From an uncultured Lentisphaeraceae bacterium (GTDB taxonomy: Bacteria > Verrucomicrobiota > Kiritimatiellia > RFP12 > UBA1067): DNA of 64,000 nucleotides. Location of the stretch: assembly GCA_964386385.1 (NCBI GenBank), contig CAYLRN010000001.1, positions 172,706 through 236,705 on the forward strand, in the 5' to 3' direction. The notes beneath the pieces are model-generated. The model worked only from the letters and a program-made list of their open reading frames with translations, was not told the DNA's origin and searched no databases. Below, piece by piece: positions 2,316-24,887 of the stretch. Each line of letters opens with the position of its first letter. Position 1 is the stretch's first letter. The translations under genes and the position numbers were made by a program.

Positions 2316-2609
2316 TCAAATCGTCTCCGCCTTTACTGCGCCCCCTGCAACTGAACCGCGGACGGCGCGGGCGAAACCACCTCGTGTCCGAAAAAGATGG
2401 TTTCGTGCTTTTTCAATGTCCTCGGCAATTTTTCGATATTCGTCAGGCGTAAGCTGAACGTCCCGCGTTGCATGCCGAAGCGCAAGAATGTAAGCATCTT
2501 TGACGGTCATACTTTCATCTTGTCGAAAGCGCTTTGCCACTTTTGCATCGAGGTCGCGCTGAACACGAAGCGCCCTCTGAATGTTCCTAACGTCTGGCAT
2601 GTTGCTCAT
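2316..2609 (-). CDS. Small hypothetical protein, RHH/antitoxin-like
   Basis: 97-aa ORF with normal composition (MSNMPDVRNIQRALRVQRDLDAKVAKRFRQDESMTVKDAYILALRHATRDVQLTPDEYRKIAEDIEKA...). The N-terminal pattern resembles an RHH fold. The region is visibly lower in GC. The C-terminal tail looks less protein-like. Confidence 0.5.
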   Translation of the reverse strand: MSNMPDVRNIQRALRVQRDLDAKVAKRFRQDESMTVKDAYILALRHATRDVQLTPDEYRKIAEDIEKARNHLFRTRGGFARAVRGSVAGGAVKAETI

Positions 2610-2723
2610 CGCTCAATCTCCTTGCGGCGCGCGTTCCGCCGAGGCGCGGAAGGGCGCACTCGGTGGAAGAAGAAATGCCGCGCTTGTCTTTTCCGTTGGT
2701 TAGGCATCTACGTTCCTCACCGC

Positions 2724-3185
2724 TCACGCCATCGCCAATTCACGGCGAGTCCTGCGCCTTGTTGGAGCGGCGGCTTTCGGCACAGAGGCGGTCGCCTTGA
2801 GCCCAAGGGCAATGCCGTCCCAGATCGCGCTTCCGATCTGGTCGCCCCGCGCCCGTGCGACGACCGCGAGCGACTGTGCGACAAAGGCGGGGTTGCCGTC
2901 CTCAATGGCCGCGAGGATGAATTCCCCCTGCGCTTTCGGCGTTGTGAGGCTTTCCTCTGGCTTCCAGTCGTGGAGCTTCGGCCGCGCCGTGTCCTGCACG
3001 GCGAGTTCGGGATGCCGCGCAAGGTCACGCGCCGAGATGACATCAAGCGCATGGCGACCCGTCTTGCGGAAGTGGGCGCGGTCCGCCTCGACCTCCAGCC
3101 GTGCGCGGATGGAGCGCGCCGCGTCGATGTCGCATGCGTTCTCGGCCATGATGGCCTTCAGTGTTGGCAGTCTTGTCATGCTCAT
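2724..3185 (-). CDS. Putative addiction-module antidote protein (HigA/TIGR02684-like), partner of the upstream toxin
   Basis: The stretch ...LHDWKPEESLTTPKAQGEFILAAIEDGNPAFVAQSLAVVARARG... matches the conserved core of 'probable addiction module antidote' proteins. The gene starts 4 nt after the toxin ORF ends. The expected C-terminal HTH looks shortened or divergent. Confidence 0.6.
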   Translation of the reverse strand: MSMTRLPTLKAIMAENACDIDAARSIRARLEVEADRAHFRKTGRHALDVISARDLARHPELAVQDTARPKLHDWKPEESLTTPKAQGEFILAAIEDGNPAFVAQSLAVVARARGDQIGSAIWDGIALGLKATASVPKAAAPTRRRTRRELAMA

Positions 3186-3188
3186 GTG

Positions 3189-3482
3189 TCAACCTCCGAT
3201 GTGCAACTTTGAGTGAGACCCCGTGCGAACGAGGACGAGTTCGAGCCTCCCCTCGTCCTTCGAGTAGACGAGCAGCCAGTCCGGCCCGACATGGCATTCG
3301 CGATAGCCGCGCCAGCTGCCCGTGAGCGCGTGGTCGCGGTTGCGGGGCGGGAGGGCGATGTCTCCGGCAAGCAGCCGCACCACGAGTTCGAGCTTCTCAA
3401 GGTCGAGGCCGCTTTTCGCCGCCGCCTTGCAGTCGCGCTTGTACTGCGTCGTCTTGATGATGTCGTATTTGAGCGTTTCCAT
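3189..3482 (-). CDS. Type II toxin, RelE/YafQ family mRNA interferase
   Basis: 97 aa: METLKYDIIKTTQYKRDCKAAAKSGLDLEKLELVVRLLAGDIALPPRNRDHALTGSWRGYRECHVGPDWLLVYSKDEGRLELVLVRTGSHSKL. This is the characteristic YafQ/RelE layout (F/YKRD..K, DH.L.G.W.g.RECHi.pDwLLiY, L.RtGsHS.L). Confidence 0.85.
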   Translation of the reverse strand: METLKYDIIKTTQYKRDCKAAAKSGLDLEKLELVVRLLAGDIALPPRNRDHALTGSWRGYRECHVGPDWLLVYSKDEGRLELVLVRTGSHSKLHIGG

Positions 3483-3625
3483 CTGTCGTTCCCTTTCGCC
3501 GCCCCTTGGGGGCTTTGATGGTGCGTATTATAGCACAAGGTGGTTTCACCGCAACGGCCCAAACGTATTTTTACCGCGTTTTATTTTTCCCTCTACGCCC
3601 TCATCGGCGGCGGTGGTATAATCGG

Positions 3626-3773
3626 CAGGGCGAAGCGTCCCGCCCCGCCGTGTCCGCCATCGGGAGGGCGCGTGTCCTCACGCGCCGTGGGCGGAGCGGG
3701 AGGGACGCGCTTCTGCGCGTCCGCCGTCACGCACGATTCCATGTTTCGGTCGCGCAGAAGCGCGCCCCTCCCA
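3626..3773. repeat. Intergenic GC-hairpin repeat cluster B
   Basis: GGGAGG-GGCGCGTG-TCCT-CACGCGCC at 3662-3686. GGGAGG-GACGCGC-TTCT-GCGCGTC at 3698-3721. An inverted copy TCGCGC-AGAA-GCGCGC-CCCTCCCA at 3750-3773. A degenerate GGGCGaaGCGTCCCGCCCCGCC at about 3626-3649. Confidence 0.8.
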
Positions 3774-3796
3774 GGCATACGAGAATCTGCGAAGCG

Positions 3797-6700
3797 TCAG
3801 CGGAGGATCAGCAGCGTTCCGACGGCGGTGACGACGGAGATGCGGCCGTTCTCGAAGACGAGCGCGGAGTTCGGCGCAGCGCCAGAGACGGAACACGCAA
3901 GGTCCGCCGCGTCTGGCTCGTCGCCGGAGTACGCGAAGAGCGGGAATTTGGGCGGCAGCTTCACCGGACGGTCTGCCATCTGCACGACCGCGCCCTTCTC
4001 GGACTTGAACTTCGCAAGCGGGACGGGAGCGGACTGGCTGAAGCTCGCGCGCAGGACGCCGCCGCTCTGCAGCCACAGTTCGTCCAGCGCCTCCGGCGTC
4101 GCAGCCACCATGTCGAAGACGCCGCCGGCCGCGACGCCGAGCGTTCCGCGCACGGAACCGGCCACCGCCAGGCGCTGCCCGGCGGCCAGCGCGAAGGGCC
4201 GGTTCGTCGTCGTCGGCAGCACGAGGCTCGCGCCCGCCGCCACAGTGACGTTCGTCGCGGCGAGGCCGCACGCGCCCGAATCGCTCGCATGGGGGAACTG
4301 CGAGGGCGTCAGGATGCCGTACTTCGCAACCCAGGCGTCGGTCAGAGCCTTTACGGCCGCGTCGTCGATGAAGGAATCGTAGAGGCGCACCGCGGCGATC
4401 TCCCCCTTGTAGTTGAAGTCGCAGTTGCCGCTGCCGACAAGAACGCGCATTGCCTCGCGCGGCGTTCCGCCGGATCCGGCCGCCAAGAGGCGCATATGCG
4501 TGAAAACGCCGTCCACGACGATGCGCATGAGGCCGGTGTCAGTGTCGAAGGAGCAGACGGCGCAGTGAGGCTGGCCGTCGGCGAGGTCCCAGACGCGGCT
4601 GACAGTGGACTGGTCGCCGCGCGTAGACACGTTCTTTCCGCCGTAGCCGGCCATGACGCGGTTGCCCTCGCCCCAGAGACCCAGTCCCCAGTCCGCCCGG
4701 TTGCTGGTGGGAAGTTCCGCGCCGACCATAACTGACGACGCGAAGAAGTTGCGGTTCATGGTCACGGAATCAGGCATGTTTCCGTTCGTCGACGTGCGGA
4801 ATACGACCGCAGCCGTCCAGGCGACCTTGCCGGAGGCTGGCGAATCGCCGGCGGGGATGCCGAGGGAGGTGTTGTTTCCGTTGAAATAGACGGAGTTGTG
4901 TCCGTTGATCGCGCCCTTGCGCAGAACGGGTCCCTTCCAGGTGGAGGCGTAGGACGTGGCCGACAGGTCGCTTGTTCCCGTGATGCGCGTGACGTTCGCC
5001 TTGTTCGCCGTGCGCGTTCCATCCGTCGAAAGCCATTCCGTCACCTCCGCACCGTCGGCGACGTCGACGATCGAATCGGCGTCCCACGCGGCGGCGCCGT
5101 CGTCCGGAATTGCCGCGGGGACTTTCTCCCCCATCGGCGGAACGTCGCCCTGCGCCGAATCGTCATCCAGCTCTCCAACCGCGTAGACGCTCGCAGGCGC
5201 GCCGTACTTCCCGGCGAGTTCCACGCCGACGGCGGCCTTTTCGCTCCATGTCAGAGTCCTGCCGGGATAGAAGCGGATCTCGGCCAGCGCGCCCGTGAAC
5301 GCGAACTTGTACGGGGCGTCGGCGTCGGCAATGTTCTGGACGCCGAAGTAGATGTCCGCCGCGTTGCGCGGGCTGCGCGTCGTCTCGTCGAGGTCGACGG
5401 CCCTCTCGACGGTCTCGCCGTCGACGGAGAGCGTGAGCGTCCCGTCGCCGGCCATGGCGTAGATGGCAACGTGCGGCCGGCCGTCGGCGTAGCTGCGAGC
5501 CTTCGTGTAGACGCTGTAGTCCTTGTTGAGCTTGGCGACGCCGAAGCCGGCGCCGACATGTCCGTTCGCGCCGAAGACAAGCCCCCAGTCGTTCACGCAG
5601 CCCGGCTGTTCGCGTCCGAGAATGCCGGTCTCCATATACCACGAGTTGTCCCAGCCCAGGCCGGGCGTCGCAGTCTTGAAGACGACTGCCAGCGTCCAGT
5701 TGGTCTGCCCTGCGAGCGGATTTTCCTCCGCCACGACCTTGAGCGCGGAGTGGTCGAACACGACGCCCGGCCGGCCGTTGAACTCGTCGAGAGAGGCCTT
5801 GGGAACTGTCGTCGGATTCGACGAAAACGTCGGAACCACGGCAGTGCGCGAGGCAGTGGAGTCCGGCCATGCGACGACGTCGTCCCCGTCGGCAAGAGCC
5901 GCGACGGCGTCCTCCGCGCGCCAGGCTACGCATCCGGCGGCAGTCGCGGAAGAGGAGGAGGACATTGGCGCGCCCAGTATCTTGACCGTCCCCTCGTCGA
6001 CGGCGAGTTCGCCCGTGAACGCCGAGGCGTCCCCGAGGACGAGCGTGCCGGCCCCCTTCTTCGTGAGGACGCCGCATCCCTTGAGCGGGGCGCGCATGGC
6101 GAATCGGCGGTCCCGCGTGTCGACTGTCGCAGAGGCTCCGGAAGGGACGATCGTGTCGAGTTCGCTGAACGAGTCGGCCGTAGCCGCGAGCGTTCCGCCG
6201 CGCAGTTCGACGCGATACCAGGAGTCGGTCGTCGCGCCCGAGTTCCACCGCCCTTCAGTGGCCGAGAATCCGCGCGAACCGATTTCGAAGAGGCCGCCGG
6301 AGAGCGTGAACGTGCAGTAGCTGTTCGTGACGGGAATCTGGCGGTCGGCCCCGAACGTCGTCGCTCCGCCCAGCGCGACGCGCGGGACGCGCACGGCGCC
6401 GCCCGACTGGCGGTATGCGGCGGAGGGGGAGTTCACGACCGTTCCGTTGTCGCGCCTTGAGAACGCGAGGATCAGTCCGTCGTCGCCCGGCTGGCTGGAA
6501 GAGGTTTCGTCGACGGCAAGCGTTCCGCCCTTCACCGTGAAGTCGTGGGAGACGAGCTGGTGGCCGCCGCGGTCGCCCATCCAGAGCGTCCCCAGATTCG
6601 CCGTGCCGCCGTCCAGGACGAACTTCGGGTTGGCGTACCAGGTAGAAGAGCCGTTGCCCATGTAGAACGTCGTAGCGTCGAAGCGTCCGCCCGTCAGTTC

Positions 6701-7552
6701 GTAGAGCGAGTCGTACTTGCTGAAGCCGACCTGCGCCAGGACCGCCTTGACGTGTCCGCCGGACTGGCGGAACTCGCCGGAGTCGACGACGAAGACGCCG
6801 TTTGTGAAGACCGCGCCGTCGCCAAAGACCACCTTCGGCGCGCCCGGCTGCGTGAGAAGCAGATAGCTGCCTCCGCCACCCATGTTGACGACGACGCCGG
6901 GGAAGACGTCCTTCCAGTCCGCCTTGTCGGTGAACGTCAGTTCGAGCCGGGCGCTTCCGCTCCAGCGAAAGTCCTGCGCCCAGACGCCAGGTTTCGCCAG
7001 GCGCGCGACATTGTGTCCGCCGGACGCGAAGCGGTAGCCGAGCGTCCCCGCATAGGCCGGCGGCGCATTGTGGCAGGCCAGCACGGCGTTGGAGACTACG
7101 AGTTCGGAATTGCCGCCGATGGCGGCGTTGAAAAAGACCTTTGCCAGTCCGAAATCCCATGTCTGGTCCGCGGCCGTCGCCAGGCGGACGCTGAACGTGA
7201 GGTTGGAATCCGCCCCTGCGGCATGGCGGGCCGTCAGGCCGTCCGCGCCCAGGGCCAGCGTCGTCGTCGCGCCGGCCGCCGCGTTCGTGCCGACGACGAC
7301 GGCGCCGTTGGGGACGTTCGTGAGGACGAGGCCGCCTAACGCGAGGCTGGCGGAATTCGTCAGGGCAGCCATTCCCGGCCGCGCCGCGAAGTCGACCCAC
7401 GCGACGTCGTCCTCCCCCGGCAGGACACCGCCCGCCCAGTTCGCCGCGACGGCCATGTCCGCCGATTCCGCGCCGGAGAACCTTACGACCTCGCCCCGCG
7501 CCATCGCGAGAGCAAGCCCCATTGCGACTGCACAATACGCCGCCTTGACCAT
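3797..7552 (-). CDS. Giant secreted/surface protein with autotransporter-associated beta-strand repeats and two LamG (concanavalin-A-like) domains
   Basis: I place the start at ATG 7552, preceded by AAGGAGG, which gives the signal peptide MVKAAYCAVAMGLALAMA. The 131 Arg-rich codons upstream in the track ORF are rejected. PATR-like segment: KKGAGTLVLGDASAFTGELAVDEGTVKILG. LamG-type endings: LAEIRFYPGRTLTWSEKAAV..AGKYG and IAAVRLYDSFIDDAAVKALTDAWVAKYG. Confidence 0.8.
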   Translation of the reverse strand: MVKAAYCAVAMGLALAMARGEVVRFSGAESADMAVAANWAGGVLPGEDDVAWVDFAARPGMAALTNSASLALGGLVLTNVPNGAVVVGTNAAAGATTTLALGADGLTARHAAGADSNLTFSVRLATAADQTWDFGLAKVFFNAAIGGNSELVVSNAVLACHNAPPAYAGTLGYRFASGGHNVARLAKPGVWAQDFRWSGSARLELTFTDKADWKDVFPGVVVNMGGGGSYLLLTQPGAPKVVFGDGAVFTNGVFVVDSGEFRQSGGHVKAVLAQVGFSKYDSLYELTGGRFDATTFYMGNGSSTWYANPKFVLDGGTANLGTLWMGDRGGHQLVSHDFTVKGGTLAVDETSSSQPGDDGLILAFSRRDNGTVVNSPSAAYRQSGGAVRVPRVALGGATTFGADRQIPVTNSYCTFTLSGGLFEIGSRGFSATEGRWNSGATTDSWYRVELRGGTLAATADSFSELDTIVPSGASATVDTRDRRFAMRAPLKGCGVLTKKGAGTLVLGDASAFTGELAVDEGTVKILGAPMSSSSSATAAGCVAWRAEDAVAALADGDDVVAWPDSTASRTAVVPTFSSNPTTVPKASLDEFNGRPGVVFDHSALKVVAEENPLAGQTNWTLAVVFKTATPGLGWDNSWYMETGILGREQPGCVNDWGLVFGANGHVGAGFGVAKLNKDYSVYTKARSYADGRPHVAIYAMAGDGTLTLSVDGETVERAVDLDETTRSPRNAADIYFGVQNIADADAPYKFAFTGALAEIRFYPGRTLTWSEKAAVGVELAGKYGAPASVYAVGELDDDSAQGDVPPMGEKVPAAIPDDGAAAWDADSIVDVADGAEVTEWLSTDGTRTANKANVTRITGTSDLSATSYASTWKGPVLRKGAINGHNSVYFNGNNTSLGIPAGDSPASGKVAWTAAVVFRTSTNGNMPDSVTMNRNFFASSVMVGAELPTSNRADWGLGLWGEGNRVMAGYGGKNVSTRGDQSTVSRVWDLADGQPHCAVCSFDTDTGLMRIVVDGVFTHMRLLAAGSGGTPREAMRVLVGSGNCDFNYKGEIAAVRLYDSFIDDAAVKALTDAWVAKYGILTPSQFPHASDSGACGLAATNVTVAAGASLVLPTTTNRPFALAAGQRLAVAGSVRGTLGVAAGGVFDMVAATPEALDELWLQSGGVLRASFSQSAPVPLAKFKSEKGAVVQMADRPVKLPPKFPLFAYSGDEPDAADLACSVSGAAPNSALVFENGRISVVTAVGTLLILR

Positions 7553-7625
7553 TTCAAGCCTCCTTGCCAGAGAATGCCACCCGCCGCGCTTGGCGGAAAC
7601 TGCAGAGTCCGAATGCATATGAAGC

Positions 7626-7653
7626 ATTATATCCGTTTTTTTTTTCTCGTCAA
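7626..7653 (-). promoter_or_regulatory. Sigma70-type promoter TTGACG-N16-TATAAT whose spacer contains an A10 homopolymer
   Basis: The minus strand reads caaTTGACGag(A)10cggaTATAATgcttc. The -35 is at 7653-7648, the -10 at 7631-7626 and the T10 run on the plus strand at 7636-7645. It lies about 70 nt upstream of ATG 7552. Confidence 0.65.
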
Positions 7654-7677
7654 TTGCGTTCGCCATAAATGGGCGAT

Positions 7678-8526
7678 TTATGGGAGTCGGACGGCGACTT
7701 TCTTCGGCGGCATGACGTCGGGGAGACCGAGGGCCAGGTACTTCGCCCGCGCGTAGTCGTTGTACTCCAGCTCCACGCGAGCGTCCTTTGCGATGCCCAT
7801 CCCGTCGAGGTCGCGATGGCGCGCGGCAAGGTCTGCGCCGTCCGTCAGATTGGGAACGACGAGCAGGCGGACTTCCATTTTCGCCTTCGCCGCGACGAGC
7901 CGGGCGAGATTGCGCAGAATGAGCTCGTTTGATACGCCTGTGCATCGGCGATGGAGATCAGCGCCGTGCGCCTTGTAGTCGGGAAGCCACATGTCCGTCA
8001 CTGGAAGCATCGCCTCGATTGCGGCTGGCGGCGCGTGAAGCGACGTGTCCAGGCAGGTCCGCAATCCCGCCGCGCGGAAGCGCGCGAAGAGCTCCGCCGC
8101 CCATTCCCAGAAGAAGAGCGGTTCGCCGCCGGAGAGAGTGACGCCGCCGCCCGTCCGCTCGTAGAACGGCCTGTCTTCAAGCGCCAGCTCGACGATGCGC
8201 TCCATTGTCATCGGCTTCCCGTAGAACTTCAGCGCACCGGTCGGACACGTCGCCTCGTCGTTCGTGCAGACCTTGTGTCGAACGCACTTGTGCCGGAAGC
8301 GCGCCAACTGCGGCTTCGGGTCGATCGACTCCGGGTTGTGGCACCACAGGCATTTCAGCGGACACCCCTTGACGAAGAACGTCGTCCTCATCCCCGGGCC
8401 GTCCCATATTGCCATCCGCTTCACGTCGAGAAGCAGCGGCGTACGCAGCGGACGGCCGGCAGCGAACGCCGGCGCCAGAGCACATGACGCAACGCCTGCC
8501 AGGAATCCCTTGCGAGTCGTCTTCAT
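7678..8526 (-). CDS. Glycyl-radical enzyme activating protein (radical SAM) with a Tat-like N-terminal leader
   Basis: The core LLLDVKRMAIWDGPGMRTTFFVKGCPLKCLWCHNPE (CX3CX2C) is typical of PflA-family activases. ATG 8526-8524 overlaps the GRE stop (ATGA). The N-terminus is MKTTRKGFLAGVASCALAPAFAAG. The accessory ferredoxin-like Cys motifs look reduced (CVRHKVCTNDEATCP). Confidence 0.85.
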   Translation of the reverse strand: MKTTRKGFLAGVASCALAPAFAAGRPLRTPLLLDVKRMAIWDGPGMRTTFFVKGCPLKCLWCHNPESIDPKPQLARFRHKCVRHKVCTNDEATCPTGALKFYGKPMTMERIVELALEDRPFYERTGGGVTLSGGEPLFFWEWAAELFARFRAAGLRTCLDTSLHAPPAAIEAMLPVTDMWLPDYKAHGADLHRRCTGVSNELILRNLARLVAAKAKMEVRLLVVPNLTDGADLAARHRDLDGMGIAKDARVELEYNDYARAKYLALGLPDVMPPKKVAVRLP

Positions 8527-11393
8527 TGCGCGATTCCCTCCGCGCGCCGGATGTAGGCCTCCTGCTCCTTTCGCGGCATGTCGTTCCAGCGGACGTTCCA
8601 GCCGCACACGCGCACCTGCAGGTTCTCGTATTTTTCGGGCCGCCGCTGGGCGTCGCGCAGCGTCTCCACGTCCACGACGTTGAAATGGATCGCGCATCCG
8701 CCGTTCGCGAAATACGTCTGCACCAGCGCCTTCATCGCGTCAAGCCCCTTATCGCCTCCCACGGCGTACGGGAGAAGCATGACGTCGAGCGGGAAGTCGC
8801 CCGGCAGGTCGCGGGCGTCGAGGTGGGCGACGGATAGCAGAAGCGCCGTAACGCCCTCCGTGTCGGCGCCCATCGTGGGGGAGACGTTCTTGCTCATCTC
8901 CTCGCCGGCGCGGCGTCCGTCCGGCGTCGCGCCCGTGGCGCGGCCAAGGTCGATGAACTGCTTCGCGCAGTGTCCGCTCGCCTCGAACGCGCCGTTGCGC
9001 GAATTCGGGACGCCGTTCAGGCATTTAGCGTAGGCCTTGACGATTTCGTCGGCGAGATGGTTCGCCTCCGCGTCGTTGTTTCCCCACTTGCGCTTCGAGC
9101 GCTGCATCCTGAGGCGGAGGTCTTCACGCCCTTCCCAGTTCTTCGCCATCAGCGCGCCGAGTTCGGCAAGCGACATCTCACGGCGCTCGTAGACGATTTC
9201 CTCCACGGCGAGCAGCGCGTCGACCGCGGTGCCGAGGCCGGTCTGGAGGACGGAGGAGAAGTTGCCGCGCCGAGTGCCGTCGACGAATGCGTCCTTCCCG
9301 GTCATGACGCTGTATTCCGTGGCAAGCGAGAAGAGAAGGGACGGGTTGACTTCGGCAAGAGTCCTCTCCCACTCGAACGCGAGATTGCGGCTCTCGACGG
9401 TCGTCTCCGCAAGCCGCGCCAGGTAGGCCCGCCTGAACGCCGCGAAATCGGCGGCGGCGAAAGTCCCGTCCTTCGCGCGATCGAGCAGTTCCTCGACGAC
9501 CTTCAGCAGATTGACGTGGGAGATGCCGGTGCCGTTGTAGCCGTCCCTGAGGCCGAACTCGTAGCAGCCGGCGACGACCATCGCGCGGCAGTCCTCGTCA
9601 GTGCAGTCGCGTATCTTGCCCTTCAGCACGCGCGCCATCGGCTCTTCGCCGCAGAAGACGAGCGAACGGTGTCGGCGCGCCATGTCGAGGGCCTTACGCC
9701 AGACCCAGTCGGGGGTGGAGGCCGCCATCTTGAGCTGGACTTTCGGCGTCGGCAGGGCGAGTTCGTCGTGCACTTCAAGGAGAATGCGCGAGACCTCGTT
9801 GTACGCGCTCGTGCCGTCGGCGTTCGTGCCGCCGAAATAGACGGGCTGCCCCCAGTAGTTGTCGATCGACCCCCACTGCCACCAGAAGTGGCGGAGCTGT
9901 TCGCGGAACTCCGCCTCGGTCGTCCGCCCCGCCGCGATGTCTGCGCGGTAGTAGGGCGTAAGGAGGCGGTCGAGGTTGCCGAGGGAGCGGACCTGGAAGC
10001 TGTCGAAGTTCTCGCTCATCACCCAGTCGAGATAGATGAAGAGCAGGACGTCATAGGCCGTCCGCGGCGCGCCCGCGCGCAGGCGGCGCAGGGAATCGCG
10101 CTCCTTCTCGAGGCGGGAGACGCGCCGCGCATGAACCGCGCCGGGCGGGTCCGCCGCCTCGCTCCGCAGGGCAGCCAGACGACGCTCCGACTGGACGACG
10201 AGGCGGTCCAGATGGCGAAGGACGGCGTCTGCGGCCATGAGACGGCTTTCGTAGTAGGCGTTTCCGTCCTTCCAGTTCGCCAGCAGACGTTCCCGGAGGC
10301 CGGGGAAGCCGAGCGGCAGAATAGCGTCCCAGTCGGGGACGGAATGGTCGTAGTCCTTCCACATGTTCCAGCGTCCGGCCTTGCGCCCGGCATGGATCTT
10401 CGCCGGCACGTCCGGACACGTCCGGGCGTCCACCTCCCCGCTGCGCTGTCCCATGATGGAATTGAGAGGATGCCCGAACCTGTGCTTCGTCCAAAGCGCG
10501 TAGGCGGGAAACCAGTCAAGGGGCGAGACGTCTATCGCCGCGCGGTCGCAGCAGAACGCGAAGAGCTTAGCCTTTACGACGCTCCACGGCATTCTGCCCT
10601 TGCTCTCCTCCGCAAGCCTTGAGAGCGCCCCGCGCATCTCCTCGCGCTCAAGGCCGGTGGCGGGGTCTGCGACAGGGGTCCGCCACTTGAAGCGAAGGTA
10701 GTCCGCCTCGTTCGCGAACGGCGCGATCGTCCGTTCCTCGTACGGGGTCAGGACGACGTTGCGCAGACGTATCGCCACCCGTCCCTGCGGATAGGGCTGC
10801 GTCTGGAAGCCGATGCGTCCCGCGCGCGGAACTGTCACGAAGCAGCGGCTCACCTCCACTCCGTCCCACGAACACGCGACATCTCCCTCGACGCTGCGGA
10901 CGGCGAGGCGATGCCAGGCGCCGGGCGTCCGTCGCGCCGCTACGGCGCGGGGGATGCGATGGTAGCCGACTCCCGACATCGGACCCGACTGCGGCGTGGC
11001 GCCGACCATCAGCCCCGGCCATCCCCACAGGTCGCCGATGTCCGTCGTCTTCAACTGGAATTCAAGACCCGACGCCTGGTCGCCGTCGCCGACAAGAACG
11101 GCCAGCCCTCCGTCGCCGAACGAATCGTCGGCGTACTGTATTTCGGCCGTGAGCTTGAAATCGCGCCAGCGTTCCCTCGTCGTCAGGACGAGCGGCCTGG
11201 CGCCGTTCATGGTCAGGACGCCGTCCGCCAGGCTGAACGTCTCCGCGACGTCGGCGGCGGACTTCGCCATCGGGCAGTCGAAGTCCGCCAGCGTCCGCCC
11301 GGCGAACAGATCCACCGGCGGAAGCGCGGTCGGCGCGGCAAGTCCCGTCCATGCGGCAAGGACCCCGGCGGCGATGGCCATTTCAAGTTTCAT
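8523..11393 (-). CDS. Glycyl radical enzyme (PFL2/dehydratase-like) fused to an N-terminal signal-like leader and a DUF1080/3-keto-disaccharide-hydrolase-like domain
   Basis: AAGGAGG lies 6 nt upstream of ATG 11393. The C-terminal glycine loop is NLQVRVCGWNVRW and the Cys loop is VVAGCYEFG. The N-terminus is MKLEMAIAAGVLAAWTGLAAP, followed by DGVLTMNG...WRDFKLTAEIQY...GLEFQL...WHRLAVRSVEGDVACSWDGVEV...GRIGFQTQ...VAIRLRNVVL, the DUF1080 pattern. Confidence 0.85.
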   Translation of the reverse strand: MKLEMAIAAGVLAAWTGLAAPTALPPVDLFAGRTLADFDCPMAKSAADVAETFSLADGVLTMNGARPLVLTTRERWRDFKLTAEIQYADDSFGDGGLAVLVGDGDQASGLEFQLKTTDIGDLWGWPGLMVGATPQSGPMSGVGYHRIPRAVAARRTPGAWHRLAVRSVEGDVACSWDGVEVSRCFVTVPRAGRIGFQTQPYPQGRVAIRLRNVVLTPYEERTIAPFANEADYLRFKWRTPVADPATGLEREEMRGALSRLAEESKGRMPWSVVKAKLFAFCCDRAAIDVSPLDWFPAYALWTKHRFGHPLNSIMGQRSGEVDARTCPDVPAKIHAGRKAGRWNMWKDYDHSVPDWDAILPLGFPGLRERLLANWKDGNAYYESRLMAADAVLRHLDRLVVQSERRLAALRSEAADPPGAVHARRVSRLEKERDSLRRLRAGAPRTAYDVLLFIYLDWVMSENFDSFQVRSLGNLDRLLTPYYRADIAAGRTTEAEFREQLRHFWWQWGSIDNYWGQPVYFGGTNADGTSAYNEVSRILLEVHDELALPTPKVQLKMAASTPDWVWRKALDMARRHRSLVFCGEEPMARVLKGKIRDCTDEDCRAMVVAGCYEFGLRDGYNGTGISHVNLLKVVEELLDRAKDGTFAAADFAAFRRAYLARLAETTVESRNLAFEWERTLAEVNPSLLFSLATEYSVMTGKDAFVDGTRRGNFSSVLQTGLGTAVDALLAVEEIVYERREMSLAELGALMAKNWEGREDLRLRMQRSKRKWGNNDAEANHLADEIVKAYAKCLNGVPNSRNGAFEASGHCAKQFIDLGRATGATPDGRRAGEEMSKNVSPTMGADTEGVTALLLSVAHLDARDLPGDFPLDVMLLPYAVGGDKGLDAMKALVQTYFANGGCAIHFNVVDVETLRDAQRRPEKYENLQVRVCGWNVRWNDMPRKEQEAYIRRAEGIAQ

Positions 11394-11435
11394 GATACCT
11401 CCTTGAGTTCAATTGCCCCTGTGAATGGCGTTTCG

Positions 11436-14400
11436 TCAGAAAAGGCGGTTGGAGAGGAAGCAGGAGGCGACGACGTGGCCCTTGACGATGAATGTCGAGA
11501 CGGGGATGCGCATTCCGGTGAACTGCTTGAACCCCTGCAGCCACTGCCCCTTCAGCTCCAGTTCGAGGTCGCCCGTCTCGGCGCGGAACGAGACGACGCA
11601 CAGTTCGCGCGGCGAATAGCGGATTCCGGTGCCCAGGGCCTTCGAGACGGCCTCCTTCGCGCACCAGAAGCGGATGATGGCGCTTGGGGTGTCGACGGCG
11701 TTCATCGCCAGATCCTGCTCCTCCGGAAGGAAGACGCCGCGCGCGAATTCGTCGGAAAGATACCGGTCGAAGGCCTCCACGTCCACGCCGACATGGGCGT
11801 TGACCGCGACGGCGGCCATGATGAAGCGGGCGGTGTGGGCGATGGAGAGGTCGAAGTCGACGTCGCTGCGCATGTGGTGCAGCCACGGGCCCGTGACACG
11901 GGGCTTTCCGCTGGGGTCGGAATAGACCTGCACGTCGGCGTCGCTCCAGCGCGCCTGGTAGTATCTGTCCAGAAAGCGGCGGACCGCCTCCTTGGCGGCG
12001 ACGCGGCCGAAGAGCCATTCCGTCCGGCGCGCCACGCTGCCCTTCTCCTCCATCTCCGCGAACTCGTGGCGTTCGGTGCGTCCGAGGACGATGTGCGAGA
12101 GGGTCTTGAGCCAGAGTTCCTCGTTGCGTTCGAACATGGGGTAGTCGACGTCGGTCAGGACGGCGGTGGCCATCGCAAGGCCGGTCGCGCCCATGCGCTC
12201 CTCCGGGAGGGTGTGCGTCAGGTAGGTGCGCGCCGGTTCGAGGAGCATCTTTCGGTATTCGTCCGGCACGCGCTCGGTGTATTCCTCGTAGCCGCGCAGT
12301 TCCATGACAAGGTTTCCGTTGCCGTCGGAGACGAATATGTCGGAGATGAGGGACGTGGGGGTGACGCCGGTGTTGCGCAGATAGCAGTGCAGGCGGCGTC
12401 CGACGGGATGGGCGAGCGAGTGGAGGGAGAGGCCGCGGATGCGGAACGCATATGAAATCGCCCCGTGGAAGCGCTCGTGGCTGCGCCAGAGCTGGAAGCC
12501 GTCCGTGATCGCGGCCATGAGCTGCGGGTTGAGCACCCAGACCGGGACGGTCGTGTGGGACACCGCCCTGTCCGATTCTGGCACCTCAACTTCGTAGTCG
12601 AGCCCCGCCTCGCTCCATCGGTCCGCGCGGCGGATGCACTGCAGAAGCGAACCGGAGAAGAGCATGTCGGGATAGATGTCGCTCGTCTCCCAGTGGACGT
12701 CCCTCGGCGTAGTGCCGTGCTCCGGCGGCGTGAACGCCTCCGGCGGAAGGGGACCTTCGGAAAGGAGGAACGTCCCCTCCATCGCAGGCCACGTCCAGGC
12801 GGAACCGGGCGTGTCCTCGCGCACCTGGACGCGCACGGCGACGCGCGCGGAGGCGGAAGCCGCGACGCGCTCGGCCCGGACGAAGAGGCGGAGGCGGCCG
12901 TTCCTGAATGCGGCCATGCGCCGGCGCTGCAGGTCGTTCACCGCGACGACGTGGAGGCCCGGCGCCAGCTGCTGGGCGAGCTCTGCCATGATCTCCGCCG
13001 CGCCGACGAGCGTCAGCGCCGTAAACCCGCGAAGCGGCTCAAGCCCGGAGTCGGCGTGGTCGGGATGCGAGAGCTGCGACGTCCCGAGGGCGAAGTCGGC
13101 GAGGATCGGCTCCGCCTTGAGGTCGAACGTCTTCACCATCTCGATCGATATGCCCTGCTGGTGGGAGACGACGTCCATGTCTGAAATTAGCGGACACACG
13201 GCGCCGAAGCCGAACTGCTGTTCGCGGCGCCGCGCCTGGGCGGCGATGACGGCCGCGCGCACCGCGGCCCGGCTGCGGCGGTCCGACGCGCCGCCCATGG
13301 AGGGCGCAAGCGCGGAGACGGCCTGCGGCGGCGGGACGTCCACCGTCAGGGCGAGGCAGGGGAACTCGCGCGAAAGCGGCATCTCCGCCTCCATCCTGAC
13401 GTTGAGCGAGAGGGGCGACGAGAAGTCCAGAAGCCGGCATCTGCGCTGGCGGAAGAGAAGCGAGGGGTCGACGGCGGCGCCAAGGGCGGCGAGCTGGCCT
13501 ACGACGTGCATCAGCTGGACGAGGCCCACGCGGTGGATGGAGTCCGCCGCCATCACGACGCGCTCCTCTCCGCGCAGGACCTCGTCGGCAAGGCCGCAGC
13601 ACGTCCCGCGCGGGCCGACCTCCAGGAAGACGCGATAGCCGTCGGCGTACATTCTGCGAATCGTGTCCGCGAACATGACGGGCCGCACCCATTCCTCCGC
13701 CGCCTCGTCGCGCGCCTTGCGGACGCGGGGGTGGAGCGGTTCGGCGCGGCCGCACGAATAGACGGGGAACTGCGGCTTTTCGTCTATCCAGTTGGACGCG
13801 AACTTGCGCAGGAGCGGAAGCACCCCACGGCAGCCCGGCGTGTTGAACGGCCTGTCCACGGAAAGGCGGCGGACGCGCGCCCCGGCGGCGGAAAGGCGCT
13901 TCACGACGTCGGCGGCGCATTCCGGCGCGGCGGCGATTGTCATGTGGCGCGGGGAGAGGCGATACGCCACGCCGACCTTGTCAGGCGGGAACTCGCCCAA
14001 CGCGCGTTCCGTTTCGCCGGGGCTTGCAGAGACGACGGAGGCGAGGACGCACTTCGGAAGCCCCGAATGCCCCACCGCCGTGTTCACCACCTTGTACGTC
14101 TCCTGCAGGAATTTGAGCCGGTGCTTGCGCTCGAACTTCCCGAACATCCCGCTTGCGGCGAGGGCGCTCAAATCGCCTCCGGAAAAGCCCGTCGCCCCTT
14201 CCGGCACGATTCCGAGCGCGCGGAAGAGGCGCGTCAGCGCCATGTTGGCGGAATACGTGGAGACGACGGCCTCGGCGTAGCCGCCGGCCGCGAAGACGTC
14301 CGCGTCCCCGCGGTAGTACGGCGCCGGCGGGAATACGAACGACGACGGCTGGAAGGGGCCTGCGCCCTTCAGCGCGGCCTCGAGCTCGTCGAAGGGAAGA

Positions 14401-14819
14401 CGGCACTCGCGGAAGCGCACGGTGACGTCGCGAAGCATGTCGGGATAGAACGACATTGCGCCGGGATAGATGAACGCCAGCTTCCCGTCCGCGCCCTCGC
14501 CGAGGACGTGCCTGGAGAAGAAGTACGTCCCCGACTTGTCGCGCAGACGCTCCGTCTTCGCGTCGGCGATCCGCGCCGCGGCGGAGACGAGGCGGCCGCG
14601 CAGTTCCGGGACGTCGGAGACGACGAGCGCCAGAACCGCGGCCTTCTCGCCGTCAGCGAACCGGCGGGCGCACGTGTACGCGACGTCGCGCAGCTCCACG
14701 CCCGTGATCTGGTCGATGAACGACACAAGGCCGTTCACCTCGGACACAAGCCCATCCCTGTCCGCCGCGCCGAGCAGGACAAGTTCGCTTCCAAACCATT
14801 CGCTCAGGTCCGCGCTCAT
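11436..14819 (-). CDS. PKS-like multidomain protein: acyltransferase-like, PKS dehydratase-like, and C-terminal 4'-phosphopantetheinyl transferase domains
   Basis: AT-like region: IYPGAMSFYPDM, GFSGGDLSA (GxSxG), VDRPFNTP, FLEVGPRG. Hot-dog/DH-like region around ILADFALGTS...PLRGFTALTLVGAAEIMAE. PPTase motifs: GKPRV, FDLSIAHT, VGVDVEAF, FWCAKEAVSKALG. I see no ACP (DSL) motif. The ATGA-type overlap at 14816-14819 couples it to the upstream KS-like gene. Confidence 0.75.
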   Translation of the reverse strand: MSADLSEWFGSELVLLGAADRDGLVSEVNGLVSFIDQITGVELRDVAYTCARRFADGEKAAVLALVVSDVPELRGRLVSAAARIADAKTERLRDKSGTYFFSRHVLGEGADGKLAFIYPGAMSFYPDMLRDVTVRFRECRLPFDELEAALKGAGPFQPSSFVFPPAPYYRGDADVFAAGGYAEAVVSTYSANMALTRLFRALGIVPEGATGFSGGDLSALAASGMFGKFERKHRLKFLQETYKVVNTAVGHSGLPKCVLASVVSASPGETERALGEFPPDKVGVAYRLSPRHMTIAAAPECAADVVKRLSAAGARVRRLSVDRPFNTPGCRGVLPLLRKFASNWIDEKPQFPVYSCGRAEPLHPRVRKARDEAAEEWVRPVMFADTIRRMYADGYRVFLEVGPRGTCCGLADEVLRGEERVVMAADSIHRVGLVQLMHVVGQLAALGAAVDPSLLFRQRRCRLLDFSSPLSLNVRMEAEMPLSREFPCLALTVDVPPPQAVSALAPSMGGASDRRSRAAVRAAVIAAQARRREQQFGFGAVCPLISDMDVVSHQQGISIEMVKTFDLKAEPILADFALGTSQLSHPDHADSGLEPLRGFTALTLVGAAEIMAELAQQLAPGLHVVAVNDLQRRRMAAFRNGRLRLFVRAERVAASASARVAVRVQVREDTPGSAWTWPAMEGTFLLSEGPLPPEAFTPPEHGTTPRDVHWETSDIYPDMLFSGSLLQCIRRADRWSEAGLDYEVEVPESDRAVSHTTVPVWVLNPQLMAAITDGFQLWRSHERFHGAISYAFRIRGLSLHSLAHPVGRRLHCYLRNTGVTPTSLISDIFVSDGNGNLVMELRGYEEYTERVPDEYRKMLLEPARTYLTHTLPEERMGATGLAMATAVLTDVDYPMFERNEELWLKTLSHIVLGRTERHEFAEMEEKGSVARRTEWLFGRVAAKEAVRRFLDRYYQARWSDADVQVYSDPSGKPRVTGPWLHHMRSDVDFDLSIAHTARFIMAAVAVNAHVGVDVEAFDRYLSDEFARGVFLPEEQDLAMNAVDTPSAIIRFWCAKEAVSKALGTGIRYSPRELCVVSFRAETGDLELELKGQWLQGFKQFTGMRIPVSTFIVKGHVVASCFLSNRLF

Positions 14820-16186
14820 CGCCGTTCCTCGCCTTCTGGTTCCTCCTCAAGCACCACCGCCGCCTTTCGTCCGCCCAGGTCGGAGACAAGCACGACCGCG
14901 CGGCGCGGCGACGACGGGTCGCCCGTGATCCACGGCCGCGGCTCGTTCAGCAGGTACACCGACGAGTTCGCGCTGGAGAGCTGCGCAAGCGGCGTCGCCA
15001 CCGGCATCTGCGGCGGAAGGATACGCCGGCGCAGGGCGATCGCCGCCTTGAGCAGTCCCGCCGCCGCCTCGGCGCGGAAGCAGTGCCCCACGTTCCCTTT
15101 CACGGAGCCGATGCCGACGAGCGGCCCGCCGGGGCGGTGCTCGCCCCAGACGGACTGCACCGCCTCCACTTCCGCGGCGTCCATTTCGGGGATACCGCAC
15201 CCTTCCGCCTCGACGAGCCCGATCGAGTGGAGCGGCGCCGCCGCGCGCTCCGCCGCATCCGCCAGCACGTCGGCGGCGGAGAGCTCCCCGCAGGAGACAG
15301 ACCTGACGAGCGCGTATATGCGGTCGTTCGCGGCAAGCGCGTCCGACTCGCGCTTCAGGACGAAGAACGCGCCGCCCTCGCCGGGAATCGTGCCGTGGGC
15401 GGACCGGTCGAAGGGAGTCAGTTCGGAGTCCTTGGAGAAAAGAACTTCGCCGGAGACGCCCTGAAGGAAGGCTCTGCTGAGCGGCGGCGTCAGGGCCCCG
15501 GCCAGCGCGACGTCCGCCCGGCCGCTGCGAAGGTCGTCCATCGCGCCGCGCAGCGACGCGACGCCGCTGAGAAAGCCGCCGTCTATCGTCGTCGCCCCGC
15601 CGGAAAAGGAGCATTCGTGCGCTATCCACGAGGCTATCCTGTGCCCTGAACCGGAAAGGAAGCTGGCGGCGTTCGCCTCCGGGAGGGAGGAAAGCAGCTT
15701 CTGCCTTATGTTCTCGAACGATTCCTGCGGGGCGTTGCGGAAGAACCTGCCGATGATCTCCATCGTCTGGTCGATGAAGAACGTGTGGTCGAGCCAGTTG
15801 ACCGTGGAGGCGTTGAAAGGCGGCGCGTAGCCGAAGCGCACCGTGCCGCGGTGCAGTTCGCGCCCATGCGGACGCATCCCCGCATCGACAAGCGCGTCGA
15901 ACGCCAGCTGGACGGCGAAGTAGAGATCCTGGTTTTCGCCCTTGTTTATCTGGCGCGGGAAGTTCTGGTCGCCGGGGACGCAGGCGTAGAGCCGCCCGAG
16001 CGTCCCGCCGTGCGTCGGATACGGGCGGTTGAAGAGGTTCTTCGCGCCCGGCAGCAGCGCGGTGTCGAACCCAAGCGGCGCGATGCCGCTCTTCTGGTGC
16101 ATTATCTGCCGCCAGAAGACGCCCGGGTCCGCCGCCTGCGCGAAACGGCATGACACGCCCACGATTGCTATTGGAATGCTTTGCAC
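14816..16186 (-). CDS. Beta-ketoacyl synthase-like protein lacking the canonical active-site Cys
   Basis: KS fold: IPIAIVGVSCRF..., ...GSVKGNVGHCFRAEAAAGLLKA. At the DTACSSS position it reads DGGFLSG. At EAHGTG it reads EAEGCG. I prefer the GTG start at 16186 (MQSIPIAIVG), which has TATACT 6 nt upstream. The track's ATG at 16270 would overlap the purN promoter. Either start is possible. Confidence 0.75.
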   Translation of the reverse strand: MQSIPIAIVGVSCRFAQAADPGVFWRQIMHQKSGIAPLGFDTALLPGAKNLFNRPYPTHGGTLGRLYACVPGDQNFPRQINKGENQDLYFAVQLAFDALVDAGMRPHGRELHRGTVRFGYAPPFNASTVNWLDHTFFIDQTMEIIGRFFRNAPQESFENIRQKLLSSLPEANAASFLSGSGHRIASWIAHECSFSGGATTIDGGFLSGVASLRGAMDDLRSGRADVALAGALTPPLSRAFLQGVSGEVLFSKDSELTPFDRSAHGTIPGEGGAFFVLKRESDALAANDRIYALVRSVSCGELSAADVLADAAERAAAPLHSIGLVEAEGCGIPEMDAAEVEAVQSVWGEHRPGGPLVGIGSVKGNVGHCFRAEAAAGLLKAAIALRRRILPPQMPVATPLAQLSSANSSVYLLNEPRPWITGDPSSPRRAVVLVSDLGGRKAAVVLEEEPEGEERR

Positions 16187-16232
16187 GCCACCAGTATAGC
16201 AAAAACGACCGCCGTGTTGTAGACACCGGCAA

Positions 16233-16262
16233 TGGACAACAGGCGGCACGTTGTTGTACAAT
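16233..16262 (+). promoter_or_regulatory. Candidate purN promoter TGGACA-N18-TACAAT
   Basis: TGGACA at 16233-16238 and TACAAT at 16257-16262, followed by the RBS AAGGAG and ATG 16283. Confidence 0.45.
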
Positions 16263-16282
16263 AGCCGCATTCAAGGAGAACC

Positions 16283-24875: not shown

Positions 24876-24887
24876 GAAGGAGGCAAT

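Follow-up and report, generated by a model that had tools for sequence, protein, structure and literature searches.

Export-type leaders on a glycyl radical enzyme and its activase: a gene pair of an uncharacterised Kiritimatiellae family

The gene pair

A stretch of DNA of 64,000 nucleotides (nt) from an uncultured Lentisphaeraceae bacterium (contig CAYLRN010000001.1, positions 172,706 to 236,705), called the window in this study and analysed at its full length, contains on its reverse strand the gene of a glycyl radical enzyme (GRE) followed by the gene of a radical S-adenosylmethionine (SAM) activase. Both proteins start with a leader that resembles an export signal, and in the GRE a DUF1080 domain stands between the leader and the catalytic core. 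Overall, our analysis suggests, with a probability of roughly 60%, that the pair is a translationally coupled operon of a Kiritimatiellae-type anaerobe and belongs to a large uncharacterised GRE clade with a C-x-E Cys loop, whose enzymes use substrates derived from glycans, presumably of plants, in the cell envelope. A preliminary description of this DNA had proposed that such a radical enzyme might be located in the envelope and act on glycan-derived material, with anchors or interaction tags as the alternative role of the N-termini; the family-wide leaders, their covariation and the fusions of GREs to glycoside hydrolase (GH) and carbohydrate esterase (CE) modules point in the same direction. 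The pair has the following layout.

8523..11393, reverse strand: GRE gene, 956 amino acids (aa) and TGA stop, with putative signal peptide, DUF1080 domain and catalytic core
7678..8526, reverse strand: activase gene, radical SAM, 282 aa and stop (TIGR02494, PF04055, PF13353)
8523..8526, reverse strand: ATGA, GRE stop overlapping the activase start, translational coupling (read from the sequence)
11398..11404, reverse strand: Shine-Dalgarno sequence AAGGAGG, 5 nt upstream of the GRE ATG at 11393 (read from the sequence)
8536..8541, reverse strand: ribosome-binding site GGAGGG, ~9 nt upstream of the activase ATG (read from the sequence)

All sequence features named in the preliminary description were found where it had placed them. 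These include the two GRE hallmarks (the glycine loop and the Cys loop VVAGCYEFG, in a protein that matches the Pfam PFL-like and Gly_radical families), the activase motif CPLKCLWC and the ATGA overlap at 8523-8526. Strong ribosome-binding sites occur at both leader-containing starts and support translation from these starts. In the activase no ATG, GTG or TTG is present between M1 and codon 27 (CTG), codons 30-37 not having been read base by base, and the conserved segment TPLLLD lies upstream of M38. A longer activase open reading frame (ORF) of 339 aa, extending to 8697, is the out-of-frame tail of the GRE gene.

Spurious long ORFs of this kind arise in high-GC DNA, and several database homologs are clearly mis-started. 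Both observations would suit an explanation in which wrong start codons, a chimeric assembly join or the two together produced the leaders and the DUF1080 fusion. The strong ribosome-binding sites at the leader starts, the lack of an alternative activase start between M1 and codon 27, with TPLLLD before M38, and the conservation of the leaders across hundreds of orthologs argue against it.

Catalytic core and class of the glycyl radical enzyme

8526..10712, reverse strand: GRE catalytic core, aa 228-956 (Pfam, alignment, Foldseek)
8976-10364, reverse strand: pyruvate formate-lyase (PFL)-like domain, aa 344-806, E 4e-56 (Pfam)
9552..9578, reverse strand: Cys loop VVAGCYEFG, aa 606-614, with C610 as thiyl radical site and E612 as general base of the C-x-E motif (conservation)
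8583..8894, reverse strand: glycine radical domain, aa 834-937 (PF01228, E 4e-22)
8586-8624, reverse strand: glycine loop NLQVRVCGWNVRW, aa 924-936, containing G931 (conservation)

The glycine loop reads QVRVCGWNVRW and fits the RVxG[FWY] pattern of the GRE superfamily. Comparison of homologs revealed that G609-C610-Y611-E612 is invariant in 28 family sequences and nearly invariant in 74, and R928-V929-C930-G931-W932 is nearly invariant among the 74 homologs aligned. The core shares 55-73% identity with family members of ~750 aa. Another family GRE, P0105 (811 aa), carries tandem copies of ~18 aa (GCQPVKTQRTGWQPVPPV...) at about residues 395-470, inserted in a surface segment that lies after the Cys loop and before the next helices.

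AlphaFold2 modelled the full GRE with a predicted local distance difference test (pLDDT) score of 87.8, with values above 90 in the core; the model consists of an N-terminal helix (aa 2-15), a beta-sandwich and a high-confidence barrel. Foldseek matched the core, a 10-stranded alpha/beta barrel, to more than 40 solved GREs at probability 1.00 and template-modelling (TM) scores of 0.77-0.83. The best superpositions of the model were with glycerol dehydratase (GD, 1r8w), PflD (8yjo/8id0; TM 0.83, root-mean-square deviation 3.9), propanediol dehydratase (PD, 5i2g) and HypD (6vxc), and the closest solved structures are ~20-25% identical to the window GRE.

The C-x-E motif on the Cys loop defines the GRE eliminases and isomerases (PMC13450708). 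The reaction that characterises this class is the breaking of a C-O, C-N or C-S bond beside a carbinol carbon. The earlier assignment of the window GRE to the class was correct: its loop reads G-C-Y-E, and the solved structures nearest to it belong to 1,2-eliminases and to PflD and YbiW, isomerases that act on sugars. Among the NCBIfam equivalogs (HypD, CutC, PflD/YbiW-type, HpsG/HpfG, GD and PFL) the best scores were 130-236 bits, against cut-offs of 678-1150 (PFL2-3, 236 against 678; HypD, 210 against 1100). By each defining feature tested, the two window proteins are members of the superfamilies of GREs and of their activases, and the GRE falls into the C-x-E class; no named equivalog fits it.

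The activase

8341..8364, reverse strand: radical SAM cluster motif CPLKCLWC (C55, C59, C62), aligning to the CX3CX2C motif of the PFL-activating enzyme (PFL-AE), 3c8f
8221..8319, reverse strand: shortened ferredoxin-like insert, aa 70-102, C-x2-H-x2-C-x6-C-P (alignment)

The activase scored 214.5 bits against TIGR02494 (cut-off 174), the model of PFLE_PFLC-type GRE activases. Canonical activase hidden Markov models (HMMs) start matching only at residue ~30-34, which indicates that the leader is an add-on to the conserved protein. Relative to PFL-AE the activase has an insert of 33 aa, in which one auxiliary-cluster motif is left; alignment of the window activase found only this one of the two Cx2Cx2Cx3C auxiliary-cluster motifs expected of the subfamily. 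Sister activases from Lentisphaeria have both motifs in an insert ~27 aa longer. Inserts were compared between the window and L005, L006, L015, L022, L023, L036 and L039 on one side and Lentisphaeria L048, L049, L054, L062 and L072 on the other. The Kiritimatiellae-clade activases, with a leader or without, have lost ~27 aa of the insert, one motif and ~20 C-terminal residues relative to the Lentisphaeria proteins. The motif left in them is C-x2-[C/H]-x2-C-x6-C-P, with His at the second position in the window.

Leaders of the two proteins

11337..11393, reverse strand: putative general secretory (Sec)-type signal peptide of the GRE, aa 1-19, MKLEMAIAAGVLAAWTGLA, likely cleavage after G-L-A (hydropathy, ortholog comparison)
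8455..8526, reverse strand: twin-arginine-like leader of the activase, aa 1-24, MKTTRKGFLAGVASCALAPAFAAG, with an A-F-A / A-A-G c-region (ortholog comparison)
8500-8517, reverse strand: T-R-K-G-F-L motif of the activase leader

Leaders were assigned to Sec-type, twin-arginine translocation (Tat)-type and leaderless classes by heuristic regular expressions and hydropathy rules of our own. The GRE N-terminus, MKLEM-AIAAGVLAAWTGLA|A, has a hydrophobic core with a Kyte-Doolittle value of 2.3, G-L-A at positions -3 to -1 and a net n-region charge of about +1. AlphaFold2 modelled this leader as a detached helix of low confidence. It is similar in style to the leaders of a GH2 and an AXE1 protein of the same window. 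Among GRE orthologs and a stand-alone DUF1080 protein (P0241) the leader is variable, and conservation starts at VDLxAGRTLADFDC.

The activase leader is a family trait. All of the 120 closest activases have M..[ST]-R-[RK]-x-F-[ILVM], an Ala-rich hydrophobic (h-) region, an AxA-like end and G-R-x-x-K-T-P-L-M-L-D; the twin motif is R-K in 79, R-R in 40 and R-G in one. The distance from the twin motif to DGPG is exactly 38 residues in 103 of 119 sequences. Family activases without a leader start with MKTPLMLDTKRM. Analysis of the 120 closest GREs revealed ~59 Sec-type leaders, 34 Tat-type leaders and about a dozen truly leaderless proteins, so that ~93 have a leader. Twenty-eight of the Tat-type GRE leaders contain R-R and six R-K, in motifs such as TRRGFL, SRRSFL and TRKRFL, and a proline-rich linker comes after many of the Sec-type leaders (...LAFG/RGESWVPKPPPPPP, for instance). 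Relatives that are at most 45% identical, among them Oligosphaera ethanolica DSM 24202 and the sister clade in Lentisphaeria, are leaderless proteins of ~720-750 aa that start at the conserved core. The presence of leaders in the close clade and their absence from these relatives identify them as a derived trait of one clade.

Two Tat-type GRE leaders scored above the TIGR01409 cut-off of 16.7 (P0005, 23.0; P0098, 17.4). The R-R activase ortholog P0123 scored just below the cut-offs (TIGR01409, 16.2 against 16.7; PF10518, 20.0 against 22.7), and P0124, also an R-R activase ortholog, matched neither of these two Tat-signal HMMs. In the window a phosphoesterase-like protein (47834-48787, reverse strand) carries a canonical Tat leader, MSANVDRRTFLASLGGLAAAAALPSFA (DRRTFLASLGG...), that scored 24.1 bits against the PF10518 cut-off of 22.7. 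The organism therefore appears to use Tat, and the earlier naming of this phosphoesterase leader as a clear Tat leader holds. The accompanying claim that the activase leader is Tat-like stands with respect to its motif, h-region, A-F-A end and family-wide occurrence, but its R-K version is not matched by the Tat HMMs.

This failure and the predominance of R-K would suit an explanation in which the N-termini are tethers on the cytoplasmic side of the membrane or tags that bind a partner or chaperone, like the vestigial Tat-like N-terminus of NarG, and in which the pair acts on imported sugars in the cytoplasm. The activase leader is unusually conserved in sequence and spacing, a sugar kinase and a transporter occur at some loci, and all characterised GREs and activases are cytoplasmic or enclosed in bacterial microcompartments (BMCs) (PMC13450708). 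We consider this explanation improbable, since it leaves unexplained the proline-rich linkers after the leaders and the alternation of R-R and R-K within an otherwise canonical S/T-R-R-x-F-L context; with a signal anchor whose N-terminus is inside, moreover, the catalytic domains would still be extracytoplasmic.

Covariation of the two leaders

The cores of GREs and activases in 163 sequences were anchored by HMM or motif, and the region from the preceding stop codon to the core was classified. HMM-anchored stop-to-stop segments were used; greedy calling of the longest ORF chose opposite-strand shadow ORFs in high-GC loci. Pairs were counted when both genes were on the same strand and adjacent or within ~1 kb. 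The combinations of leaders found are as follows.

Sec-type GRE with Tat-type activase: 14 pairs and 2 at ~1 kb, the window included
Tat-type GRE with leaderless activase (start MKTPLMLDTKRM): 8 pairs and 3 more (L111, cut by a contig edge, and two at 488 nt)
Tat-type GRE with Tat-type activase: 0 pairs
Leaderless GRE with leaderless activase: 25 pairs
Leaderless GRE with Tat-type activase: 2 pairs (L003, L016)
Sec-type GRE with leaderless activase: 1 pair (L057, a miscalled Lentisphaeria gene, in reality without a leader on either protein)

For the exported classes Fisher's exact test gave p = 8e-8, a value that is not corrected for phylogeny. A quick neighbour-joining tree of activase cores contained at least five separate leaderless groups nested among Tat-bearing activases, and the leader of the partner GRE switches alongside; both layouts occur within the single 'DTTWWDPYV' GRE subclade. 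When the rule was tried on two unsampled subclades, both obeyed it: in L164 a 250-aa activase starting with MKIPLMLDTKRL (MKIPLMLD) accompanies two R-R GREs, and in L166 the 278-aa activase of a Sec-type GRE starts with MGEISRKEFLEASTAFAVSPLLSATGR (MGEISRKEFLE). With these two loci added, the totals are 17 pairs of Sec-type GRE and Tat-type activase and 12 of Tat-type GRE and leaderless activase.

Such covariation is expected under real translocation, since a GRE is folded before it is activated and its activase is loaded with Fe-S clusters in the cytoplasm. A GRE that leaves folded via Tat can be activated beforehand, and its activase can stay in the cytoplasm; a GRE that leaves unfolded via Sec must be followed by its activase, to which only the Tat route is open. 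Placing both proteins in the cytoplasm leaves this Sec/Tat complementarity unexplained.

The main rival to separate export of the two proteins also ends in the periplasm. It holds that the activase activates the folded GRE in the cytoplasm and that the complex leaves via Tat on the activase leader, as a hitchhiker; the GRE N-terminus is not used by Sec and is cleaved later or serves as an anchor. In this arrangement neither SAM nor a reductant is needed beyond the cytoplasm, and 1:1 synthesis would follow from the ATGA coupling. No pair has more than one Tat leader, as with the hitchhikers HybO/HybC and DmsA/DmsB, and the leaderless GREs with Tat-type activases of L003 and L016 have exactly the layout of a hitchhiker. 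These two loci could be hitchhiker-type pairs, or their activases could serve another GRE elsewhere in the genome. The GREs of Tat-type activases would, however, need no leader on this explanation, yet 17 of 19 have a hydrophobic leader ending in AxA, and in multidomain forms such as the tannase-GRE of L119 the leader fronts an ordinary secreted esterase module. A GRE dimer with its activase would also exceed 240 kDa, which is large for Tat. Joint export on the activase leader is for these reasons unlikely, in our view, as an account of the window pair.

The DUF1080 domain and its fusion to the glycyl radical enzyme

10740..11315, reverse strand: beta-sandwich of the DUF1080 / 3-keto-disaccharide-hydrolase type, aa 27-218 (PF06439, Foldseek)

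The first ~220 aa of the GRE had been said to contain a DUF1080 domain, and the domain is detected by an HMM above its cut-off and matched in fold, a concanavalin-like beta-sandwich, by a structural model. PF06439 (3keto-disac_hyd, formerly DUF1080) matches aa 27-200 with 36.8 bits against a gathering cut-off of 26.8. When this domain was modelled alone (pLDDT 78), the top Foldseek matches were the DUF1080 structures 3u1x, 3hbk and 3osd (BT2157), and the model also matched the 3-keto-glycoside eliminase/hydratases 8v31, 8rr2 and 9fbe, including the AL2/BT2 hydratases. The window domain is only ~15% identical to the solved enzymes, and its similarity to the lyase/hydratases is at the level of the fold.

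The fusion occurs in four independent protein clusters (P0001-P0004, 59-82% identity) and in L029, a locus of a metagenome-assembled genome (MAG). A search with the N-terminal domain alone found a single match, P0241, a stand-alone secreted DUF1080 protein of 231 aa that is 37% identical to the window domain. It starts with a signal peptide of its own, after which it shares the sequence VDLLAGRTLADFDC with the window protein. In L169 the P0241 gene lies directly upstream of a family GRE with a 4-nt overlap, a translationally coupled arrangement. This unfused pair makes the origin of the fusion visible. P0008 (781 aa) has a signal peptide, only the last DUF1080 strand (...PYGKDKVTIRLRNVVLTPYEERPLDLF) and then the GRE core, and appears to have arisen from the DUF1080-GRE fusion by deletion.

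Conservation of the fusion in five independent sequences at 59-82% identity, together with the unfused pair of L169 that shows how it arose, indicates that the fusion is no assembly chimera. With the evidence on start codons given above, the artefact explanation is already largely refuted, and we give it hardly any credence.

Other modules between leader and core

DUF1080 is one of several carbohydrate-related modules that stand between leader and GRE core in this family. In each GH or CE fusion to a GRE a single leader precedes the whole protein.

GH78 alpha-L-rhamnosidase: L101 and P0324 (GRE 33% identical to that of the window)
GH5: L121 and L066
GH2, mannosidase-like: P0247
GH43: P0276
AXE1: L108, P0243 and P0245
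SASA and AXE1: L155
SASA: P0057
Tannase/feruloyl esterase: L119
Beta-lactamase-type esterase: L017

The fusion of GREs behind GH and CE modules, and behind DUF1080 domains whose stand-alone forms carry signal peptides (PMC8121099), likewise goes unexplained if the pair is cytoplasmic.

Size and distribution of the family

A search of 5.8 billion proteins found 579 homologs. In the P0057 cluster a SASA esterase takes the position of DUF1080, and the remaining hits are proteins of ~740-770 aa that match residues ~220-956 only. More than 571 loci were found in a scan of species-representative genomes and 80 further loci in a metagenome scan. The genome loci belong nearly all to Kiritimatiellae/Kiritimatiellia, 'Verrucomicrobia' MAGs and Lentisphaeria/Victivallales; most come from rumen and gut samples, and several genomes have multiple paralogs. 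In the NCBI annotation a family member is named 'hypothetical protein'.

The architecture had been called undescribed, and our literature search agrees in that it found no publication on export signals in GREs or their activases; the family is uncharacterised but large and is not a one-off. The search combined GREs with twin-arginine, signal peptide, periplasm, Kiritimatiellae, Lentisphaerae and CAZyme, and found no description of an exported GRE or activase and no report of a radical SAM enzyme or GRE as a Tat substrate. A June 2026 review of the superfamily contains none of the terms 'periplasm', 'signal peptide', 'secret', 'export' and 'extracellular', and the only compartment that it discusses is the bacterial microcompartment.

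Proposed mechanism

Judging from the leaders, the GRE precursor would be exported unfolded by Sec via its cleavable leader and would fold in the periplasm as a DUF1080-GRE enzyme. The activase needs its [4Fe-4S] clusters to be loaded in the cytoplasm and would therefore be exported folded by Tat via its T-R-K-G-F-L leader, and in the periplasm it would install the radical on G931. SAM and the electron may travel with the activase, which would leave the cytoplasm SAM-loaded and reduced and would fire once. This proposal is the simplest solution but largely speculative; it was prompted by the 1:1 translational coupling and by the precedent of Gfo and of the proposed cofactor export of BT2158. 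Gfo is known to be exported by Tat as a folded protein together with its tightly bound NADP (Halbig et al. 1999, as cited in PMC8121099). BT2158, the partner dehydrogenase of the DUF1080 protein BT2157, has a putative Tat signal and is proposed to carry tightly bound NAD(P) (PMC8121099).

By analogy with GD and PflD/YbiW, the radical would pass from G931 to C610, and the thiyl radical would take a hydrogen from a carbinol carbon of the sugar. E612 would deprotonate the hydroxyl group, and the ketyl radical would expel a neighbouring C-O substituent to give a keto-deoxy sugar or glycoside. PflD and YbiW abstract hydrogen at C2 of 1,5-anhydro-hexitol-6-phosphate and then cleave the C1-O5 bond (PMC13450708). 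The fused DUF1080 domain, if it acts like the 3-keto-glycoside 1,2-lyase/hydratase family, would then cleave or hydrate the product; otherwise it may hold the glycan. BT2157, which has a signal peptide, hydrolyses 3-keto-trehalose and acts on 3-keto-disaccharides (PMC8121099). On these analogies it would be chemically coherent for a C-x-E GRE to form a keto-(deoxy)glycoside, or to expel directly the substituent of the adjacent carbon, and for a DUF1080 lyase/hydratase to act next. In sister pairs with a Tat-type GRE and a leaderless activase, activation would take place in the cytoplasm, and the folded, radical-bearing GRE would then be exported.

Several points weigh against placing the pair in the cell envelope. 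To our knowledge there is no source of SAM or of a low-potential reductant outside the cytoplasm. A SAM transporter, a periplasmic ferredoxin or flavodoxin and a small subunit were sought near the pairs, and only AraC regulators, esterases and secreted proteins recur there. One auxiliary cluster motif is gone from the activases of the clade. The n-region of the window GRE leader (MKLEM) is weakly basic, those of orthologs being clearer, and the R-K leader of the window activase matched neither PF10518 nor TIGR01409. R-K occurs in two thirds of the activase orthologs, as in the window, and is a poor Tat motif in E. coli. L003 and L016, with a leaderless GRE and a Tat-type activase, break the rule of covariation. 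Some automatic leader calls were wrong and were corrected by eye (L057, a false Sec; L005 and L103, initially missed), and the data come mostly from MAGs and short metagenome contigs. Motif class, fusions and gene neighbourhood are the only grounds on which the chemistry and the substrate are proposed.

A wider proposal is that the whole GRE clade consists of extracytoplasmic carbohydrate-active modules of strict anaerobes that are deployed like glycoside hydrolases, cleave or dehydrate glycans and mature by two interchangeable routes, one with a pre-activated Tat-type GRE and the other with a Sec-type GRE and a Tat-type activase. We advance this generalisation tentatively and consider it doubtful.

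Comparison with known systems

PflD/YbiW and the GRE 1,2-eliminases (glycerol dehydratase, propanediol dehydratase and HypD) share with the window pair the 10-stranded barrel, the glycine loop, the C-x-E motif and an adjacent TIGR02494-type activase. PflD and YbiW, whose substrates are 1,5-anhydromannitol-6-P and 1,5-anhydroglucitol-6-P, show that the class can cleave a C-O bond at pyranose C1 (PMC13450708). The window GRE differs from these enzymes, to which it is only ~20% identical, in the Tyr in the middle of C-x-E, the putative signal peptide and the DUF1080 domain, and the window activase differs from theirs in its Tat-like leader and its one auxiliary-cluster motif. In contrast to the role proposed for the window pair, those enzymes work in the cytoplasm, on small metabolites or sugar phosphates.

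In the GRE-associated microcompartments (GRM1-6 and GRMguf) a GRE eliminase and its activase are directed, as is proposed for the window pair, by N-terminal extensions to a compartment away from cytoplasmic SAM and reductant, and the same question of activase supply within the compartment arises (PMC13450708). The window pair differs in that no shell genes are present in the loci searched, its extensions are of the signal-peptide type and the proposed compartment is the periplasm or envelope. The leaders might instead be encapsulation peptides for a BMC of a new GRM type or for another internal compartment of Planctomycetes-Verrucomicrobia-Chlamydiae (PVC) bacteria. GRE eliminases and activases are often targeted to BMCs by N-terminal extensions (PMC13450708), and PVC bacteria include lineages with unusual compartments. 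A tblastn search with PduA, however, found no BMC-H homolog in 1.86 Mb of family loci and the window, and no small shell-like gene recurs among the neighbours. The leaders also have the anatomy of a signal peptide (basic n-region, hydrophobic core, AxA) and not that of an amphipathic encapsulation helix, and GH and CE fusion partners are not BMC cargo. Targeting to such a compartment is consequently very improbable.

The 3-keto-glycoside pathway of Bacteroides BT2156-BT2160 and Alistipes AL resembles the proposed system in its DUF1080 protein with a signal peptide and in a proposed periplasmic keto-sugar chemistry that enables elimination of the glycosidic bond. Its partner protein, a GFO/IDH/MocA dehydrogenase, is proposed to be Tat-exported with its cofactor, and cofactor-loaded Tat export is established for the related Gfo. 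A GH109-like GFO/IDH/MocA gene beside the family pair of L166 is a further feature reminiscent of this pathway. In the window, however, the partner of DUF1080 is a glycyl radical enzyme and not an NAD-dependent dehydrogenase. Tat-exported redox enzymes (Gfo; HybO/HybC, DmsA/DmsB) resemble the window pair in that an Fe-S protein carries a twin-arginine-like leader, of the R-K variant in the window, and in having at most one Tat leader per pair, whereas the window pair differs from Tat hitchhiker pairs in that the partner has a Sec-type leader of its own and not none.

Neighbouring genes

Beyond the activase, no gene is consistently conserved beside the GRE in the neighbourhoods of the family loci. 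Genes found near family pairs include GH2, GH28/pectate-lyase-fold and GH109-like GFO/IDH/MocA genes, BD-FAE and GDSL esterases, AraC regulators, a PfkB kinase and a sugar transporter.

The L164 operon (contig k141_1372147, 5001-12247) contains a Tat-type GRE, a lipoprotein-like BD-FAE esterase, a second Tat-type GRE, an activase without a leader, a PfkB sugar kinase and a sugar transporter. In this operon a single cytoplasmic activase apparently acts on both exported GREs, and the product may be imported and phosphorylated. L166 (scaffold_1285, 1-14247) is a pectin-type cluster with genes for GH2, a BD-FAE esterase, DUF4838, a leucine-rich-repeat (LRR) protein, a GH28/pectate-lyase-fold protein, a GH109-like GFO/IDH/MocA oxidoreductase and an FAD oxidoreductase. 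In L001 (contig CBDRPA010000047.1) a PnuC-like gene of the NMN_transporter family (15222-15896) adjoins the activase. The pair of L001 consists of a Tat-type GRE and a leaderless activase and is thus of the cytoplasm-activated type, so that the PnuC-like gene is no obvious candidate for a SAM exporter.

In the window a carbohydrate cluster at 22110-27445, 11-16 kb from the GRE, comprises a GH2 protein (leader MKKTMLAFMAICATAFAGA), a ROK-family kinase and an AXE1 acetyl-xylan esterase (leader ...LFAAAAIAVAAAVCGA); the signal peptides of this cluster resemble that of the GRE. Directly upstream of the GRE, after a gap of 42 nt, two genes occupy 11436-16270 on the reverse strand. One encodes a 1127-aa protein with acyltransferase, polyketide synthase (PKS)-dehydratase-like and 4'-phosphopantetheinyl transferase domains and is the nearer to the GRE. 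A 484-aa ketosynthase adjoins it, and the two belong to a cluster resembling PKS or polyunsaturated fatty acid (PUFA) synthases with no evident link to the GRE pair. On the other side a 1382-aa ORF with a PATR autotransporter-type repeat (3797-7945, reverse strand) shares 268 nt with the 3' end of the activase gene, read in a different frame. Translation of this ORF probably begins at the internal MVKAAYCAVAMGLALAMARGE; this sequence is signal-peptide-like, and the product would be a giant secreted protein encoded downstream of the pair. Giants of the PATR/LamG type also flank relatives (L163; cluster cl15).

Possible implications for glycan breakdown by Kiritimatiellae

GREs and radical SAM activases, textbook enzymes of the cytoplasm or of microcompartments, depend on SAM, anoxia and a low-potential reductant. 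Provided that the leaders work, a large family in Kiritimatiellae of gut and rumen brings radical chemistry into the periplasm and wires it into modular glycan-degrading proteins, which would be a new catalytic principle in anaerobic polysaccharide breakdown. A redox-neutral radical route would connect to the 3-keto-glycoside pathway of DUF1080 proteins, and the question would arise of how a glycyl radical is installed and maintained outside the cytoplasm. The Sec/Tat complementarity of enzyme and activase constitutes a natural experiment on the timing of folding versus translocation. Metagenome-based estimates of GRE function miss the family, because its annotation goes no further than 'hypothetical' or 'PFL-like'. 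The clade-wide extracytoplasmic reading, if true, would provide an anoxic counterpart of the oxidative enzymes that attack polysaccharides and the first radical SAM chemistry outside the cytoplasm.

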